Made by a program: the position numbers and the translations under genes. From the NCBI GenBank assembly GCA_038858525.1, contig JAWCFL010000001.1:30001-62000 (forward strand): 32,000 bases of DNA. Reading direction: 5' to 3'. The DNA comes from Candidatus Jordarchaeales archaeon (lineage in GTDB: Archaea > Asgardarchaeota > Jordiarchaeia > Jordiarchaeales > Freyrarchaeaceae). How positions within the stretch are numbered: position 1 is the first letter of the stretch; every line of letters starts with the position of its first letter. Below the pieces are notes generated by a model, which saw only the letters and a list, made by a program, of their open reading frames with translations, did no database searches and was not told the origin of the DNA. Positions 5,277 through 16,232 of this stretch are shown piece by piece.

Positions 5277-6728
5277 TTAACCCTTAACGACACCTATGGG
5301 CCTCAATTTAGCCACCAATGATGCTATTCCCACTTTGTGGGAAACATCAACTACTAGGTCGACGTCCTTGTATGCTTCAGGCGCCTCTTCACTCATGACG
5401 ACTACGCTAGCCGCTTCTACCAGGATTCCAGACTTTTGAAGCTCATTCTTGACTTTTTCACCCCAAAACCTCTTCTTCGCAGTCGCCCTGCTAAGCCTCC
5501 GGCCCGCGCCATGCGCCGTAGAGCCAAAGCTTAACTCCATGGATTCAGCTCTCCCTCTTAGAACATAACTGGCAGTACCCATAGTTCCAGGTATAAGAAC
5601 CGGCTGGCCGGTTTCTCTATATTTCTGAGGAATATCTGGATGGCCCGGTGGAAAAGCTCTAGTGGCACCTTTCCTATGAACGCATAGAACTTTTTCTTCA
5701 CCGTCAACGCGGTGTTTCTCGAACTTGGCAATGTTATGAGCCACGTCGTACACTATTCGGATTCCAAGATCTTCAGGTGAGGAAGAGAAAACCTTACCGA
5801 AAGATTCACGCACCCAATGCGTTATGCACTGTCTATTTGCCCATGCAAAGTTAGCGGCGGATGCCATTGCTGCAATATAACTTTCTCCTTCCTTACTTTT
5901 TCCAGGAACTGCAGCTAGCTCCCTGTCTGGAAGTGATAGCCCGTATTTTCCCATGGCATGCTCCATAATCTTCAAGTAGTCAGAGCAGATCTGATGGCCA
6001 AGACCGCGTGAACCAGTATGTATAAGAACTGCTATTTGTCCCTCGAATAAATCCATCCGCTTTGCTGCTTCTTCATCGTAAACATGCTCAACATATTGAA
6101 TTTCGAGGAAGTGGTTTCCACTGCCGAGCGTTCCAAGTTGAGGTGCCCCACGCTCCCTTGCCTTAGAGGATACTTTGCTAGCGTCAGCGTTCTTGAGGCA
6201 ACCTTCCTCCTCACAGTACAGTCTGTCTTCCTCCCACCCGAAGCCTTTCTCTATAGCCCAGTTAACACCAGATTCAAGAACATCATCTAGTTCAGAGGAA
6301 GACACCCTTATTTTTCCTTCTGAGCCGACGCCACTAGGAATTTCTCTAAATAGAATGCTTAGTAGCTCTTTGAGCTTTGGGATAACTTCGTTCTTTGACA
6401 GGTTTGTTCTAAGCAAGCGAACCCCGCAGTTTATATCGTAACCAACTCCGCCCGGAGAGACAACTCCGTCCTCTTCGAAATCGACGGCGGCGACTCCCCC
6501 AATAGGAAAACCATACCCTTGATGCGCATCAGGCAAGGCTATAGAGTTTTTTTGAATCCCTGGTAGGCATGCAACATTCATAGCTTGAACCAGTGTTTGG
6601 TCCTTCTTCATTCCATCAAGAAGCTCTTCATTTGCAAAGATCCTAGCTGGCACACGCATACATTTTTTCGCGTCCTTCGGTATCTCCCATATTAAATTAC
6701 TTATCTTTTTTACAGGAAGCTGAGACAA
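5277..6728 (-). CDS. rtcB: RtcB RNA 2',3'-cyclic phosphate/5'-OH ligase (tRNA splicing ligase)
   Basis: 483 aa, TTG start after AAGGAGGA; PDAHQGYGFPIG, GYDINCGVR, GSGNHFLE, HTGSRGLG, YDVAHN, HRKGATRAF, HGAGR, EEAPEAYK; no intein. Confidence 0.97.
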   Translation of the reverse strand: MSQLPVKKISNLIWEIPKDAKKCMRVPARIFANEELLDGMKKDQTLVQAMNVACLPGIQKNSIALPDAHQGYGFPIGGVAAVDFEEDGVVSPGGVGYDINCGVRLLRTNLSKNEVIPKLKELLSILFREIPSGVGSEGKIRVSSSELDDVLESGVNWAIEKGFGWEEDRLYCEEEGCLKNADASKVSSKARERGAPQLGTLGSGNHFLEIQYVEHVYDEEAAKRMDLFEGQIAVLIHTGSRGLGHQICSDYLKIMEHAMGKYGLSLPDRELAAVPGKSKEGESYIAAMASAANFAWANRQCITHWVRESFGKVFSSSPEDLGIRIVYDVAHNIAKFEKHRVDGEEKVLCVHRKGATRAFPPGHPDIPQKYRETGQPVLIPGTMGTASYVLRGRAESMELSFGSTAHGAGRRLSRATAKKRFWGEKVKNELQKSGILVEAASVVVMSEEAPEAYKDVDLVVDVSHKVGIASLVAKLRPIGVVKG

Positions 6729-10261: not shown

Positions 10262-10365
10262 CGAGAAAACCGTCCAAAAATGCTTTTACATGAAAACTTG
10301 TAATGAGAGGAAATATTTTTCTTTGGTTAGAAAGAGAGGTGAAGGTGCTTTTCGAGGAAGAGGTG

Positions 10366-11607
10366 ATGAAGGTGAGTAGGATCAGGGATGTTAAAGCGCG
10401 AAGAATAATTGACTCAAGGGGAAACGCTACAATAGAAGTAATTGTTTATGCCGGAGATGTTGCCGTTAGTGCATGCGCCCCGTCAGGAGCAAGTGTTGGA
10501 CGACATGAGGCGCAAGCATTTCCTAAAGGAGGGGTAGAGGAGTCCATCAGGATGATTGAGGCATTATCACGTGTCCTGAAGGGAATGAGTGTTGAGGACC
10601 AGGAATCAGTAGATAAGGCGATCCGTGAGTTCGATGGTACAGGGAATCTTAGCAGGGTTGGCGGTAACGCGGCCATAGCTCTTTCGGTTGCTGTGGCAAA
10701 AGCTGCAGCAGCAATCAAAGGCGTTCCTCTTTGTAGATGCTTCAGCGACCGACTAGAAGCGCCATTCCCCTTAAGCAACATTATAGGAGGAGGGGTTCAC
10801 ACTAGAGGTGATTCTATAGACTTTCAAGAGTTTTTAGTTTTACCGGTTGGCGCTAAGAGTTTTGGTGAAGCGGCCAAAATAAACGTGATGGTTCACAGAG
10901 AAGTTTCCCGCATTTTAACGGAGCGATTCCCAAAATATGTGTTTGGGAGGAACGATGAGGGAGCCTGGGCGGCTCCATTAACCATAAGAGAGGCCCTTGA
11001 AGTCCTTTCCTCAGCAGTGCAGAGAGTTGAGGGCGAAGTGGGCGTTAAGATCCGGGTTGGAGTGGATGCCGCGGCTTCAAGCATCTGGAATGAGAAGAGG
11101 AATATGTATGTTTATAGAAAAGAGGGGTTCGAAAAGACGATTGAACAGCAGCTAGAATATGTTTCATCATTAATCGAGGACTACGGTGTGGCTTACTTTG
11201 AAGACCCGTTTAATGAGGAGGACTTTGACTCATTTGCAAAGTTGAAAGCGTCTCTGGGAAGAAAGTGTATAGTCACAGGAGACGACTTGACCGTGACTAA
11301 CAGAGAAAGAATAAGGAAGGCTGTGGAGAAGGACGCTATTAATGGAGTAATAATAAAGCCAAATCAGATAGGAACACTTACAGATACCAAGATGGCAGTT
11401 GAACTTGCTTCCTCAAGGAAAATAGTTCCAATAGCTTCTCATAGGTCGGGTGAAACATGTGACCCGGCATTAGCTCACATAGCGGTAGGTATGAGGTGCC
11501 CTATCATTAAAATAGGAATAATGGGAGGCGAAAGAATGGCAAAGATAAACGAGATCATAAGAATCGAAGAGGAACTGAGAATTAGGATGGCAAATCCTCC
11601 CATTTGA
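10366..11607 (+). CDS. eno: Enolase
   Basis: DSRGNATIEV, APSGASVG, NIIGGGVH, QEF, NDEGA, EDPF, GDDLTVTN, IKPNQIGT, SHRSGET. Real start likely ATG 10366 or GTG 10372 (GAGGTGA SD at 10360-10366) rather than 10303. Confidence 0.96.
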   Translation: MKVSRIRDVKARRIIDSRGNATIEVIVYAGDVAVSACAPSGASVGRHEAQAFPKGGVEESIRMIEALSRVLKGMSVEDQESVDKAIREFDGTGNLSRVGGNAAIALSVAVAKAAAAIKGVPLCRCFSDRLEAPFPLSNIIGGGVHTRGDSIDFQEFLVLPVGAKSFGEAAKINVMVHREVSRILTERFPKYVFGRNDEGAWAAPLTIREALEVLSSAVQRVEGEVGVKIRVGVDAAASSIWNEKRNMYVYRKEGFEKTIEQQLEYVSSLIEDYGVAYFEDPFNEEDFDSFAKLKASLGRKCIVTGDDLTVTNRERIRKAVEKDAINGVIIKPNQIGTLTDTKMAVELASSRKIVPIASHRSGETCDPALAHIAVGMRCPIIKIGIMGGERMAKINEIIRIEEELRIRMANPPI

Positions 11608-11608
11608 C

Positions 11609-12067
11609 ATGGAGGGATATAATATTTTCAATGAGATAGCGGAATTCATAGAAACAAGATATGCTAACGCACGTAAAATAATTGAAGTGGGGTTTGGAGG
11701 GCGGACAGAGACAGCGATTAAATTGGCGAAAAAAATTAATGCAGAGATAATTTTGACAGATGTAAATCCAGATTTCTTAAATACAGAGTTAAATGCAGAG
11801 CTTAAAGGTAGTATCAGAGTAGTTATAGATGACATATTCAATCCAAACTGGAAGTTATATGAAAAAGCGAATTTAATATATGCGATAAGGCCAAACCCTG
11901 AATTACAAAAACAGATAATTGATGTAGCCTCTAAATCAGGGGCGGATGCGCTTCTTAAAGTCCTAAGCGATGAATGGCCTGAAACAGAGAACATGAACAT
12001 GAAACATGAGGTAATTAACTATAAAGGGGTCATACTTCATTTTTTCGTAAACACTAAGCGCCATTAA
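11609..12067 (+). CDS. UPF0146 family protein
   Basis: 152 aa; KIIEVGFG, LTDVN, DDIFNPNWKLYEKANLIYAIRP.PEL pattern typical of archaeal UPF0146; starts one base after the eno stop. Confidence 0.8.
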   Translation: MEGYNIFNEIAEFIETRYANARKIIEVGFGGRTETAIKLAKKINAEIILTDVNPDFLNTELNAELKGSIRVVIDDIFNPNWKLYEKANLIYAIRPNPELQKQIIDVASKSGADALLKVLSDEWPETENMNMKHEVINYKGVILHFFVNTKRH

Positions 12068-12266: not shown

Positions 12267-14692
12267 TTGTCAAGGAATGAGAAAATCGTGCTCTGGTTTG
12301 AGGAGATAGGAAAGGAGGACGTTGCGCTTGTAGGCGGGAAATGCGCAAACCTTGGGGAAATGATCACAAAGGCTAAGGTGCCTGTACCTCCGGGGTTTGC
12401 GGTGACGACGTATGCATATAAACGATTCATAAAGGAGACCAAGATAATGGACAAGATCTTCAGCAAACTCAGGGAAATTGACGTTAGAGATTTGAAGCAA
12501 CTGGAAGAGGCGTCTAGAGAAATAAGGAAGCTTATTGAGGGGACTAAGGTTCCAGAAGACATACAGTCAGCTATATTAAGTGCTTATGATGATTTAGCAA
12601 GAAGAGTTGGCAGAGAGCCGCTTGTAGCTGTCCGTTCTAGCGCGTCGGCAGAGGATAGAGACAGGGTCTCCCTCTCTTGCCGGGCGCTAGTTTTGCCGGG
12701 CAGCAAGATACTTTCCTGAATGTCTCTAAAGGTGAGCTTGTAGAGAGTGTAAGGCGTTGCTGGAGTAGCCTATTTACTCCTAGAGCGATAGCATATAGAG
12801 AGGAGAAGGGGTTTAGACATGAGGACGTGTCAATAGGGGTTGCCGTTCAGGAGATGGTTGACGCGAAAGCTGCGGGAGTTATGTTTAGCATACACCCAGT
12901 TACAGGGGATAAAAACAGAATTCTTATAGAGGCCAGCTGGGGACTTGGTGAGGCCGTAGTAAGTGGGGCTGTGACCCCTGACACATACATAGTAGATAAA
13001 AAAACTTTTGAAATTCTCGAAAAACAAATTGCAACTAAAAAAGTGGAGCATATAAGGGATCCTAAAACTGGAAAGACGATACATGTGGAGGTCCCGAAGG
13101 AGAGGCAAAACGTTCCAGCCTTAACGGATGAAGAAATAAAGGCGCTGGCGAGATACGCCCGCCAGATAGAGCAGCATTATGGTACGCCGCAGGACATGGA
13201 GTGGGCTATTGACAAAGACGGGAGGATATTTATACTCCAAGCAAGGCCAGAAACAGTTCACTCGACGGGATCAGCCATAGTGGAGCAACGATTAGTGGAG
13301 GAAAAGGAGGGGGAAGTGCTGGTGAGGGGATTGCCTGTTTCACCAGGAGTAGGGGCAGGGAAAGTCAAGGTAATCCTTAACGTTAAGGACATTGACAAGG
13401 TCAAAGAGGGGGATGTGCTTGTCACTAAGATGACTACACCTGACTGGGTTCCAGCCATGAAGAGGGCGGCAGCAATAGTTACGGATGAGGGAGGATACAC
13501 TTGTCATGCAGCTATAGTGTCACGCGAGCTTGGCGTCCCATGTGTTGTTGGGACTGGAAACGCGACAGAGGTGCTGGTGAATGTTGATGCTGTGACTGTT
13601 GATGGTGGAAAAGGATTAGTGTATCGCGGGATAATTAAAGCTGCTAAGGAGGAAGAATTTAGAGCTCCGGCTGTCGTTGAAGCTCAGATGATGATTCCGA
13701 CTGCTACGAAGATATACGTTAACCTCTCAATACCAGAAATCGCTGATAAGGTTGCAAGGGAGACAATGGCTGATGGAGTTGGGCTTCTCAGAGCGGAGCA
13801 CATGATGGTGACCATAGGCAAGCATCCTCGGAAGCTTATAGAGGAAGGTGGAGAAAACCTAATGGTTGAAAAATTCGCAGAGGGAATACGGAAAGTTGCA
13901 GAAGCGTTCTACCCGGGACCTGTAGTTTACAGGTTCTTAGACTTTAAGCCGGACGAGTTCCTAGCCTTAGAAGGAGGGGAAAAATACGAGCTAGAGGCGG
14001 GGCACGTTGGTCCAAATCCCATGATAGGATACAGAGGCCAGTACAGGTACGTTAAGGAGCCAGATATATTCAGGTTGGAGTGCAGAGCTGTAAAGAAGGT
14101 TAGGGACGAGTTTGGGCTGAAAAACGTGTGGGTTATGGTTCCCTTTGTCAGCACAGTAGAGGTCTTCAGAGAAGTAAAAAGGATAATGAAAGAAGAAGGG
14201 CTTGACAGGGAGAAGGATCCGGACTTTAAACTGTGGATAATGGTTGAGGTGCCAAGCAGCGTCTTTCTTATAGATAAGTTCTGCGAGGAGGGCATAGATG
14301 GGGTTTCCTTCGGCACTAACGACCTTACAATGCTGGTGCTAGGAGTTGATAGGAACGACGCAGCTGTCCAGGAACTCTACGACGAACGCAACTTAGCAGT
14401 TCTTAGAGCAATAGCGTACACGATAAAGATATGCGAAAAATATGGAGTCACTACATCCATATGTGGGCAAGCTCCCAGTGTTTACCCAGACTACTTAGAG
14501 TTTCTAGTGAGAATGGGCGCTACCTCGATAAGTGTAAATCCAGATGCTGTGAAGCGAACACGTGAGATGGTGGCAAGAATAGAGCAGAAGATCATGATGG
14601 AAAAAGCGCTGAACGTGAAGCCCAGAATCAAAATAGGAAAAAGTTTTCTTGAAGAGGTGGCGTTCTGGAAATTGATAGACGATGAGGCATGA
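12267..14692 (+). CDS. ppsA: Phosphoenolpyruvate synthase (pyruvate,water dikinase), two exons 12267-12656 and 12677-14692; 801 aa after splicing
   Basis: Exon 1 ends VAVRSSASAED, exon 2 begins LPGASFAGQQDTFLNV; joined they give the conserved RSSAxAEDLPxASFAGQ motif. Also GGKCANLGEM, QARPETV, phospho-His motif TCHAAIVSRELG, FGTNDLT, SICGQAPS. 2426-20 = 2406 nt = 802 codons. Confidence 0.95.
12657..12676 (+). other. Candidate mRNA intron with canonical bulge-helix-bulge motif
   Basis: AGAGACAGGGTCTCCCTCTC. Outer helix CGGCA(12646-50)/TGCCG(12678-82); central 4 bp GAGG(12651-54)/CCTC(12671-74); bulges ATA(12655-57) and TCT(12675-77); inner helix GAGAC/GTCTC with AGG loop. Cuts after the 2nd nt of each bulge fall exactly at the frame-restoring boundaries. 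Confidence 0.9.
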
Positions 14693-14734: not shown

Positions 14735-14831
14735 ATCGAGAGGTAAGAGAGCTATCCGGGTTAGCGAAACACTTTAAAAAACATCGTGCTAATTTTCAAT
14801 TAGCCTTTAACCATATTAGGGGAGTGACATT

Positions 14832-16232
14832 ATATCAACGCAGAAGTATTACCGCACAATATCTGAGATTGCGGGGCCGCTTATTATAGTAAGCGGCGTA
14901 AAAGATGTGGCTTACAATGAAGTTGTCCTCATTGAACTACCCAACGGAGAGACGAGAAGAGGGACAGTCCTAGAGGTCGGTTTAGGCAAGGCGGTGGTTC
15001 AAGTATTCGAAGGGACAAGAGGAATTGATGCGAAGGATACTACTGTTAGGTTTACTGGGGAGACGATGAAGCTACCAGTTTCAATAGACATGATGGGGCG
15101 AATATTCAGTGGGTCGGGAGACCCGATAGATGGCGGTCCACCGATAATTCCTGAAGACGAGCTAGACATACATGGCTACCCACTTAACCCATATGCAAGG
15201 GAATACCCAAGAGAGTTCATTCAAACGGGTTTAAGCGTAATAGATGGATTGAACTCCTTGGTCAGGGGGCAGAAACTACCAATATTTTCAGGGGCAGGGC
15301 TACCTCACAACAGGATAGCAGTTCAAATCGCTAGGCAAGCAAAGGTTTTAGGGAAGGAGGAGGAGTTCGCCGTCGTCTTTGCTGCAATGGGTATAACGGC
15401 GGAGGAGGCAAGGTTCTTCAGAGCAGACTTCGAAAGAACAGGGGCACTAGAGAGAGTTGTTCTCTTTATGAATCTTGCAGACGACCCTGCGATTGAGAGA
15501 ATAATAACTCCACGTGTAGCCTTAACAGCGGCAGAGTACTTAGCATATGAGCATGACATGCACATTCTCGTGATACTTACAGACATGACAAATTATGCTG
15601 AAGCTCTGAGGGAGATAAGTGCTGCAAGGGAAGAAGTTCCGGGAAGAAGAGGATACCCAGGTTACCTTTACACTGACCTCGCAACTATATATGAAAGAGC
15701 TGGACGCATAAGGGGAAGGAAGGGAACGATAACGCAGATGCCAATTTTGACAATGCCTAATGACGACATCACTCATCCGATCCCAGACCTCACCGGATAC
15801 ATTACCGAGGGGCAACTAATAGTTGACAGAGGACTCCACAGAAAGGGAATATACCCGCCCATTGATCCTAGACCAAGCTTGAGTAGGCTTATGAAGGAAG
15901 GTATAGGAAAGGGAAGAACTAGGAAGGACCACAGAGAGGTCAGCGACCAGTTATATTACGCTTACAGTGAGGCTGTTGACCTTAGAGCGCTGGTAGCTGT
16001 CGTCGGTGAAGAAGCACTCCTCCCAAGAGACAGGAAATACTTAGAGTTCGGAGACCTCTTCGAAAGAAGATTCATAAATCAAGGGGAATATGAAGAACGC
16101 AGTATAGAAGAAACACTAGACCTCGGATGGGAACTACTAAGTATGTTTCCTGAAGGAGAACTAAAAAGAATAGACCCAGAAACCATCAATTGGGCGAAGC
16201 AAGAAGGAAAGTATACGTTTACTGGCGAGTAA
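14832..16232 (+). CDS. atpB: A/V-type ATP synthase subunit B; probable non-canonical ATA start (466 aa)
   Basis: Track ORF (GTG 14907) extends in frame to [27 protein letters not shown], the conserved N-terminus; in-frame TAG at 14817-19; SD GGGAGTGA ends 4 nt before ATA 14832. Body: [52 protein letters not shown]. Confidence 0.95.

Follow-up and report, generated by a model that had tools for sequence, protein, structure and literature searches.

BHB introns in archaeal messenger RNA

To date, cbf5 holds the only archaeal coding-sequence intron of the bulge-helix-bulge (BHB) type that has been confirmed, besides an intron in the 5′ untranslated region (UTR) of a Haloferax gene (PMC2738675; PMC7714728). 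Here we describe a 20-nt insert in ppsA, the gene of phosphoenolpyruvate (PEP) synthase, in a 32,000-nt stretch of DNA from a Candidatus Jordarchaeales archaeon (contig JAWCFL010000001.1, positions 30,001 to 62,000 of the forward strand; hereafter the window), and conclude that it is very probably an mRNA intron removed at BHB sites. Its mechanism would be that of the cbf5 intron, and what is new is the host gene, the lineage, a junction seen at the RNA level and a hint that there are many such introns. A full-text literature search, with subscription journals outside its coverage, found neither a ppsA intron nor any other mRNA intron of Asgard archaea described, just as the original prediction, made from the letters of the window, knew of no report of a ppsA intron.

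In the cbf5 gene of Desulfurococcales and Sulfolobales (Watanabe 2002; Yokobori 2009, PMC2738675), as in ppsA, a short intron within the coding sequence is bounded by a BHB motif and interrupts a conserved motif of the protein, the cut falls between the second and third bulge base, and annotators have misread the gene as frameshifted. The cbf5 intron is cut by a heteromeric form of the tRNA-splicing endonuclease EndA, and heteromeric EndA is tied to a broad substrate range as well as to this intron (PMC2738675; PMC5829648). The two introns are not homologous; they differ in that ppsA belongs to central carbon metabolism and crenarchaeal cbf5 to RNA modification, in that Asgard archaea are another phylum, and in that the ppsA motif has the strict hBHBh′ form whereas the cbf5 motifs are often relaxed. 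In Haloferax volcanii the mRNA of HVO_1309 is likewise a target of the archaeal splicing endonuclease, as in vivo and in vitro work has confirmed, but unlike in ppsA the intron lies in the 5′ UTR and leaves the reading frame uninterrupted (PMC7714728). Eukaryotic HAC1/XBP1 (PMC13149111) also carries a short mRNA intron that is spliced independently of the spliceosome, by a protein endonuclease acting at stem-loops and a tRNA-type ligase, with a change of frame; however, the endonuclease is IRE1, the recognition motif is another one and the process is regulated by stress, so that the likeness is an analogy only.

The lineage itself is known for its tRNA genes. According to a 2026 preprint, no other Asgard archaea have tRNA genes as heavily interrupted as those of Jordiarchaeaceae and Freyrarchaeaceae, which it places together in one GTDB class (bioRxiv 10.64898/2026.10.13.758758), and a 2024 study puts the share of intron-containing tRNA genes at 92-95% in Freyarchaeia and Atabeyarchaeia (PMC11291895). 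The tRNA introns of Freyarchaeia/Jordarchaeia, the same lineage as ours, and of Atabeyarchaeia are short, lie at many non-canonical positions and have the same kind of motif as the ppsA insert, and presumably both kinds of intron are handled by the same enzymes in the Jordi- and Freyr-archaeal families. A term search of the two texts gave statements on tRNA genes only and none on introns in mRNA or protein-coding genes.

A conserved motif of PEP synthase is interrupted

Two open reading frames (ORFs) on the same strand, 12267-12719 and 12677-14692, meet at the insert. The first encodes the N-terminus of PEP synthase up to ...VAVRSSASAED (12656) and then runs out of frame until its stop, and the translation of the second starts with LPGASFAGQQ... 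Translation and profile matches define exon 1 (12267..12656, +) as 130 codons from TTG 12267 to ...RSSASAED, and exon 2 (12677..14692, +) as 671 codons plus stop beginning with LPGASFAGQ. The insert thus splits the conserved motif RSSA-AED|LPGASFAGQ, and removal of the 20 nt at 12657-12676 yields GAG GAT | TTG CCG and a PEP synthase of 801 aa, with the protein sequence ...SSASAED-LPGASFAGQQDTFLNVSK across the predicted junction. In a search of NCBIfam profiles, the N part matches NF005057 over positions 3-131 and TIGR01418 over 2-125, and the C part matches them over 132-796 and 126-784, so that the halves abut without a gap on both profiles (131|132 and 125|126). Because profile positions are contiguous across the junction, excision gives back the protein without the loss or gain of a residue. 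By itself the C part scores 858.9 bits against NF005057 (cut-off 598) and 836.8 bits against TIGR01418 (cut-off 739.75), and the N part contributes 144 and 139 bits on the preceding positions. Exon 2 also holds the GGYTCHAAIVSRE / GGYTCHAAIVSRELG motif of the phosphohistidine swivel domain, of which we take GGYTCHAAIVSRELG to be the catalytic His motif. No second ppsA-like locus accompanies this one in the window's assembly (2.09 Mb, 92.7% complete).

Two abutting frames could also be read as a split ppsA, that is, two polypeptides that assemble after translation, with the hairpin between them merely intergenic. Some small archaeal genomes are known to contain split genes, and a mechanical ORF call does find a TTG at 12677. 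However, this TTG is the Leu codon of the motif, at which intron-less relatives have CTG, TTA or CTT, and the break falls inside a contiguous conserved motif without residues lost or added. Furthermore, insert lengths and sequences vary among orthologues while the BHB cut sites are fixed, and spliced RNA is observed, as described below; we therefore consider a split ppsA extremely unlikely.

The insert is framed by a strict BHB motif

The letters at 12646-12682 are CGGCA GAGG ATA GAGAC AGG GTCTC CCTC TCT TGCCG, and they form an hBHBh′ splicing motif (12645..12683, +) with a BHB energy of -17.6 kcal/mol and a fold z-score of -2.8. It comprises an outer helix CGGCA/UGCCG of 5 bp, extendable to 6 with a last U.G pair (12645-12650 / 12678-12683, +), a central 4-bp helix GAGG/CCUC (12651-12654 / 12671-12674, +), the 5′ bulge AUA (12655-12657, +), the 3′ bulge UCU (12675-12677, +), and an intron hairpin GAGAC/GUCUC of 5 bp with the loop AGG (12658-12662 / 12666-12670, +). 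The motif thus has two 3-nt bulges on opposite strands, a 4-bp helix between them and flanking helices on both sides, as a BHB does, and the helices, bulges and hairpin are exactly those claimed by the original prediction. In archaeal BHB motifs, cleavage separates the second residue of each bulge from the third (PMC2738675), and this rule applied to ppsA predicts the excision of exactly 20 nt (12657..12676, +), with which the 5′ bulge loses its last base and the 3′ bulge its first two. The frame-restoring cuts that had been proposed after the second base of each bulge, giving GAG GAT|TTG CCG, are borne out by both the reading frame and the contiguity of the profiles.

The minimum free energy (MFE) of a 51-nt segment around the motif is -26.6, better than that of 200/200 shuffles (z = -2.8), and for a 46-nt segment the unconstrained MFE is -22.4 against -17.6 kcal/mol for the BHB structure. 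BHB geometry of comparable strictness occurs at about 3 per 100,000 combinations of site and length (7016 of 246 million in a genome-wide scan). Since so strict a motif is rare and coincides with exact frame-restoring boundaries in four lineages whose intron sequences differ, we do not attribute it to chance. BHB-like hits at 13326, 15468 and 6049-6095 of the window were dismissed as lying inside intact ORFs, in non-coding frames, and neither Rfam nor ARAGORN found an RNA gene in the window.

Conservation of the insert among relatives

The closest named relative of the C part of ppsA is encoded by a metagenome-assembled genome labelled Candidatus Jordarchaeia (89% aa identity), followed by Baldr- and Odinarchaeota. 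ppsA was found in nine of the eleven genomes of the order, which comprises the Jordi- and Freyr-archaeal families, and in all nine the open frame holding the C part begins at the junction (671-685 aa). All eight orthologues that can be read carry an insert at the same codon boundary, and each of them keeps both bulges of 3 nt and a central helix of 4 bp. The insert is 20 nt long in this genome, 19 nt in G004, 18 nt in G002, where it is in frame but carries a TGA, 29 nt in four Freyr genomes and 30 nt in G006, a complete Freyr genome. In the Freyr genomes the outer helix has 3 bp, and the MFE fold adds a GCCU/AGGC stem. Hairpin stems differ among the orthologues (GAGAC/GUCUC, GGUU/AGCC, GAG/UUC and AAG.AAUGG/CCGUU.CUU); 89% of the pair cells of the alignment hold standard pairs, as opposed to 45-66% when the partners are slid, and the three hairpin pairs that can be aligned are 100% paired, with both sides changed at two of them. 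Such covariation across about four independent lineages lends moderate support to the view that the structure has been kept while its sequence varied.

The varied lengths also bear on whether the ribosome might cope with the 20 nt, either through a programmed frameshift or by hopping over them (translational bypassing). Translational frameshifting is indeed what other authors took the first cbf5 introns for (PMC2738675). But inserts of 18 nt (in frame, with TGA), 19, 20, 29 and 30 nt would call for a separate recoding event each, the structure matches an EndA substrate exactly and the RNA itself is without the insert (see below), which leaves recoding with next to no probability. We likewise attach hardly any probability to ppsA being a pseudogene or the insert an artefact of assembly or sequencing, as suggested by the frameshift that an annotation pipeline would see. 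This is the only ppsA in the genome, and the insert recurs in nine genomes that were assembled independently, as well as in DNA runs from several studies; both exons are open and, across the family-level divergence of the order, share 63-75% (N exon) and 71-86% (C exon) identity, so that a pseudogene is excluded.

Outside the order, some 150 Asgard genomes show no insert. It is likewise absent from about 75 ppsA loci of bacteria and of Odin-, Baldr-, Hod-, Bathy- and Korarchaeia, and from six more Asgard genomes inspected at nucleotide level. Of the 161 Asgard genomes that gave a match, only those of this order have frames starting at the junction; the other short frames lie at contig ends or belong to a distant paralogue of about 975 aa, where a few were left unexamined. 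The simplest history is a single gain: an ancestor shared by the Jordi- and Freyr-archaeal families probably acquired the intron, and it has been retained since.

The junction in RNA

An index of sequencing runs contained thirteen DNA runs from several studies (X1-X13) and one RNA-Seq metatranscriptome (X14) with matches to the locus. The DNA runs contain 0.95-1.00 of the sampled words of 12300-13300, a stretch that includes the insert, and X14 contains 0.42. One contig of X14 (347 nt, depth 8.3, 4 mismatches, 99% identity) covers 12353-12719 with '20 letters left out at 12657' and shows the junction GAGGAT|TTGCCG; shifting this deletion by one base either way changes the product, so that the junction is unambiguous. 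A second contig (283 nt, depth 11) aligns to 12677-12708, and its flanks match ppsA of the sister species G002 at 29/30 and 30/30 positions. It runs from ...GAGGAT straight into TTGCCG without the 18-nt insert of G002, and the same flanks, which are 50 nt apart in the G002 genome (18 nt of insert and 32 nt of exon), are 32 nt apart in this RNA contig, which means that the G002 intron is missing from the RNA as well.

It could be objected that the insert-less contig represents the DNA, or the transcript, of a related strain that never had the insert, in which case splicing need not occur here. An RNA library can contain DNA, and the 347-nt contig differs from the window at four positions and hence comes from a slightly different strain. 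Against this, the insert is kept in eight of eight readable genomes of the order, while the ninth is also split there, the DNA runs hold the insert-containing stretch, no contig with the insert was found among those of X14, and X14 also holds the transcript of a second species precisely without its own 18-nt insert. We thus regard an insert-less strain as a highly improbable source of the contig. Among the checks that the original prediction had proposed, an alignment of relatives, a comparison with DNA runs against an assembly artefact and a look for the junction in RNA favor the intron, with the same site occupied throughout the readable genomes, the insert present in the DNA runs and an assembled RNA contig lacking exactly 12657-12676.

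That said, several points weigh against a spliced ppsA intron. The MFE fold is slightly shifted in register from the BHB. In the nearest relative, 'Jordarchaeia archaeon QC4' (G001), the intron stretch is masked by 33 N and could not be read, and in G006 the central helix has an A.C mismatch (GAGG/CCCC), where the intron may be a relaxed motif that is still cut. The RNA support consists of assembled contigs of a single metatranscriptome run and not of raw reads, and the carry-over of an intron-less DNA allele into the X14 library is formally possible. Three RNA runs of raw reads (X24-X26), belonging to a study in which DNA runs contain the stretch, gave 0 reads on 12300-13100 at 3-5% sampling, which speaks neither for nor against splicing. 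Finally, cleavage by the host EndA and a full-length PpsA are predictions. As side observations on the two genomes, the spacing in G001 suggests an 18-nt insert beginning with AGAGG, and in the G006 hairpin a G-to-A change turns a U.G pair into U-A.

Splicing enzymes and proposed mechanism

The genome encodes two EndA paralogues (PF01974; 110.7 and 80.6 bits) and, in the window, a single-copy rtcB (5280..6587, -) with a full-length match to PF01139 (about 601.5-601.9 bits), so that both enzymes of the EndA and RtcB route named by the original prediction are at hand. The EndA paralogues lie in the regions C3:81835-82089 and C43:5978-6235 of the assembly. One EndA paralogue is closest to the PDB chains 3p1z_B, 3ajv_B and 2zyz_B, which we take to be the catalytic subunits of the heterotetrameric enzymes of the crenarchaea Aeropyrum and Pyrobaculum, and the second is closest to 5x89 and 1a79. 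The presence of two such paralogues suggests a heteromeric enzyme of broad specificity. The rtcB gene lies about 6 kb upstream of ppsA, which is probably a coincidence and implies no functional linkage.

The motif, its conservation despite a changing sequence, the spliced junction in RNA and the genes of both enzymes are observed, and we infer the acting enzymes, the chemistry of the ends, the fate of the intron and any regulatory role. In the pre-mRNA, both the outer and the central helix would draw their 5′ strand from exon 1; the 3′ strand of the outer helix would come from exon 2 and that of the central helix from the intron, which would also form a hairpin of its own. EndA would then cut at 12656/57 and 12676/77 and leave a 2′,3′-cyclic phosphate and a 5′-OH, upon which RtcB would join the exons into the mRNA for the 801-aa PEP synthase and the 20-nt intron would be released, possibly as a circle. 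An unspliced mRNA would yield only a fragment of about 150 aa. Because ribosomes in Archaea can begin to translate an RNA that is still being made, either splicing has to be rapid or a part of the transcripts goes to waste. At 20 nt the intron has no room for a guide RNA or a protein. The proposal that a central gluconeogenic enzyme depends on tRNA-type splicing is supported by the BHB geometry, the X14 junction, the single copy of ppsA and the presence of EndA and RtcB.

Other interrupted genes in the same genome

We scanned the genome (G000) for BHB geometry that repairs a broken frame and checked the best-structured hits for contiguity on Pfam profiles. Genome-wide scans for a BHB with open frames yielded no overall excess of candidates (847 where 830 were expected, and 206 where 238 were). 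Such a filter lets through alternative frames and gene boundaries too readily. Real cases were separated only by the ranking of helix quality together with profile contiguity, and a codon-usage filter was of no help. Among them is cbf5 itself, with a 30-nt BHB intron (contig C1:177182-177211, +) between an N part holding the DKCLD domain and a C part that matches TruB_N from position 17; the intron lies within the motif GHAGTL-D-PKVTG, which its removal restores. In kae1/tsaD a 14-nt intron (C1:187329-187342, -; TsaD profile 2-61 | 64-264) with an 8-bp outer helix lies within FSQGPG-L-GPCLR, and in pcm, the gene of protein-L-isoaspartate methyltransferase, a 31-nt intron (C1:145116-145146, -; PCMT profile 2-59 | 61-208) lies within QTISAP-H-M. 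All four verified genes (ppsA, cbf5, kae1 and pcm) have their intron inside a highly conserved motif.

A further candidate is hypD, with a putative 16-nt BHB intron (C44:4886-4901, -) within FMHVCG-T-HEQ; its C part starts at position 29 of the HypD profile and its N part, at 40 aa, is too short to score, so that hypD is probably split in the same way. The pair HcyBio-CBS / NIL-ferredoxin is a candidate that we leave undecided. Other hits were rejected as adjacent genes, namely thiolase and a DUF35-type OB protein, a thioredoxin-reductase-like protein and thiolase, amidohydrolase and LarA, an unannotated 98-aa ORF followed by Cas10, and a coiled-coil and an HTH protein. We consider it fairly likely that ppsA is one case of an mRNA splicing by EndA and RtcB that is genome-wide in the Jordi/Freyr-archaeal lineage, with a dozen or more housekeeping genes carrying BHB introns of 14-31 nt that were inherited from the common Jordi/Freyr ancestor and typically lie inside the most conserved motifs of their genes.

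Genes next to ppsA

Directly upstream of ppsA lie the genes of enolase (10303-11607, +) and of a UPF0146 protein (11609-12067, +), the latter between the other two, so that two enzymes that make or use PEP adjoin. Downstream, at about 14829-14910 (+) of the window, the gene of A-type ATPase subunit B has a conserved N-terminus that precedes the first GTG, and no ATG, GTG or TTG follows the in-frame stop ahead of it. In four Jordi genomes a conserved ATT stands there after a Shine-Dalgarno-like GGAG(T/A)G, and the sequences suggest an AUU start codon.

Implications

ppsA adds to cbf5 a gene of central metabolism in Asgard archaea, with a junction at the RNA level, and the expression of an essential-looking enzyme would depend on the tRNA-splicing machinery. 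Annotation pipelines will take ppsA and genes like it for pseudogenes or for pairs of ORFs, which distorts the metabolism reconstructed for such uncultured lineages ('no gluconeogenic PEP synthase'). Together with the other split genes and the extreme load of tRNA introns, ppsA provides a testable system for the spread of protein-spliced introns into mRNAs, and one that bears on how splicing proceeds alongside coupled transcription and translation in relatives of eukaryotes. If splicing is truly that widespread, this would be the first prokaryotic lineage with routinely interrupted protein-coding genes, among the closest known relatives of eukaryotes.

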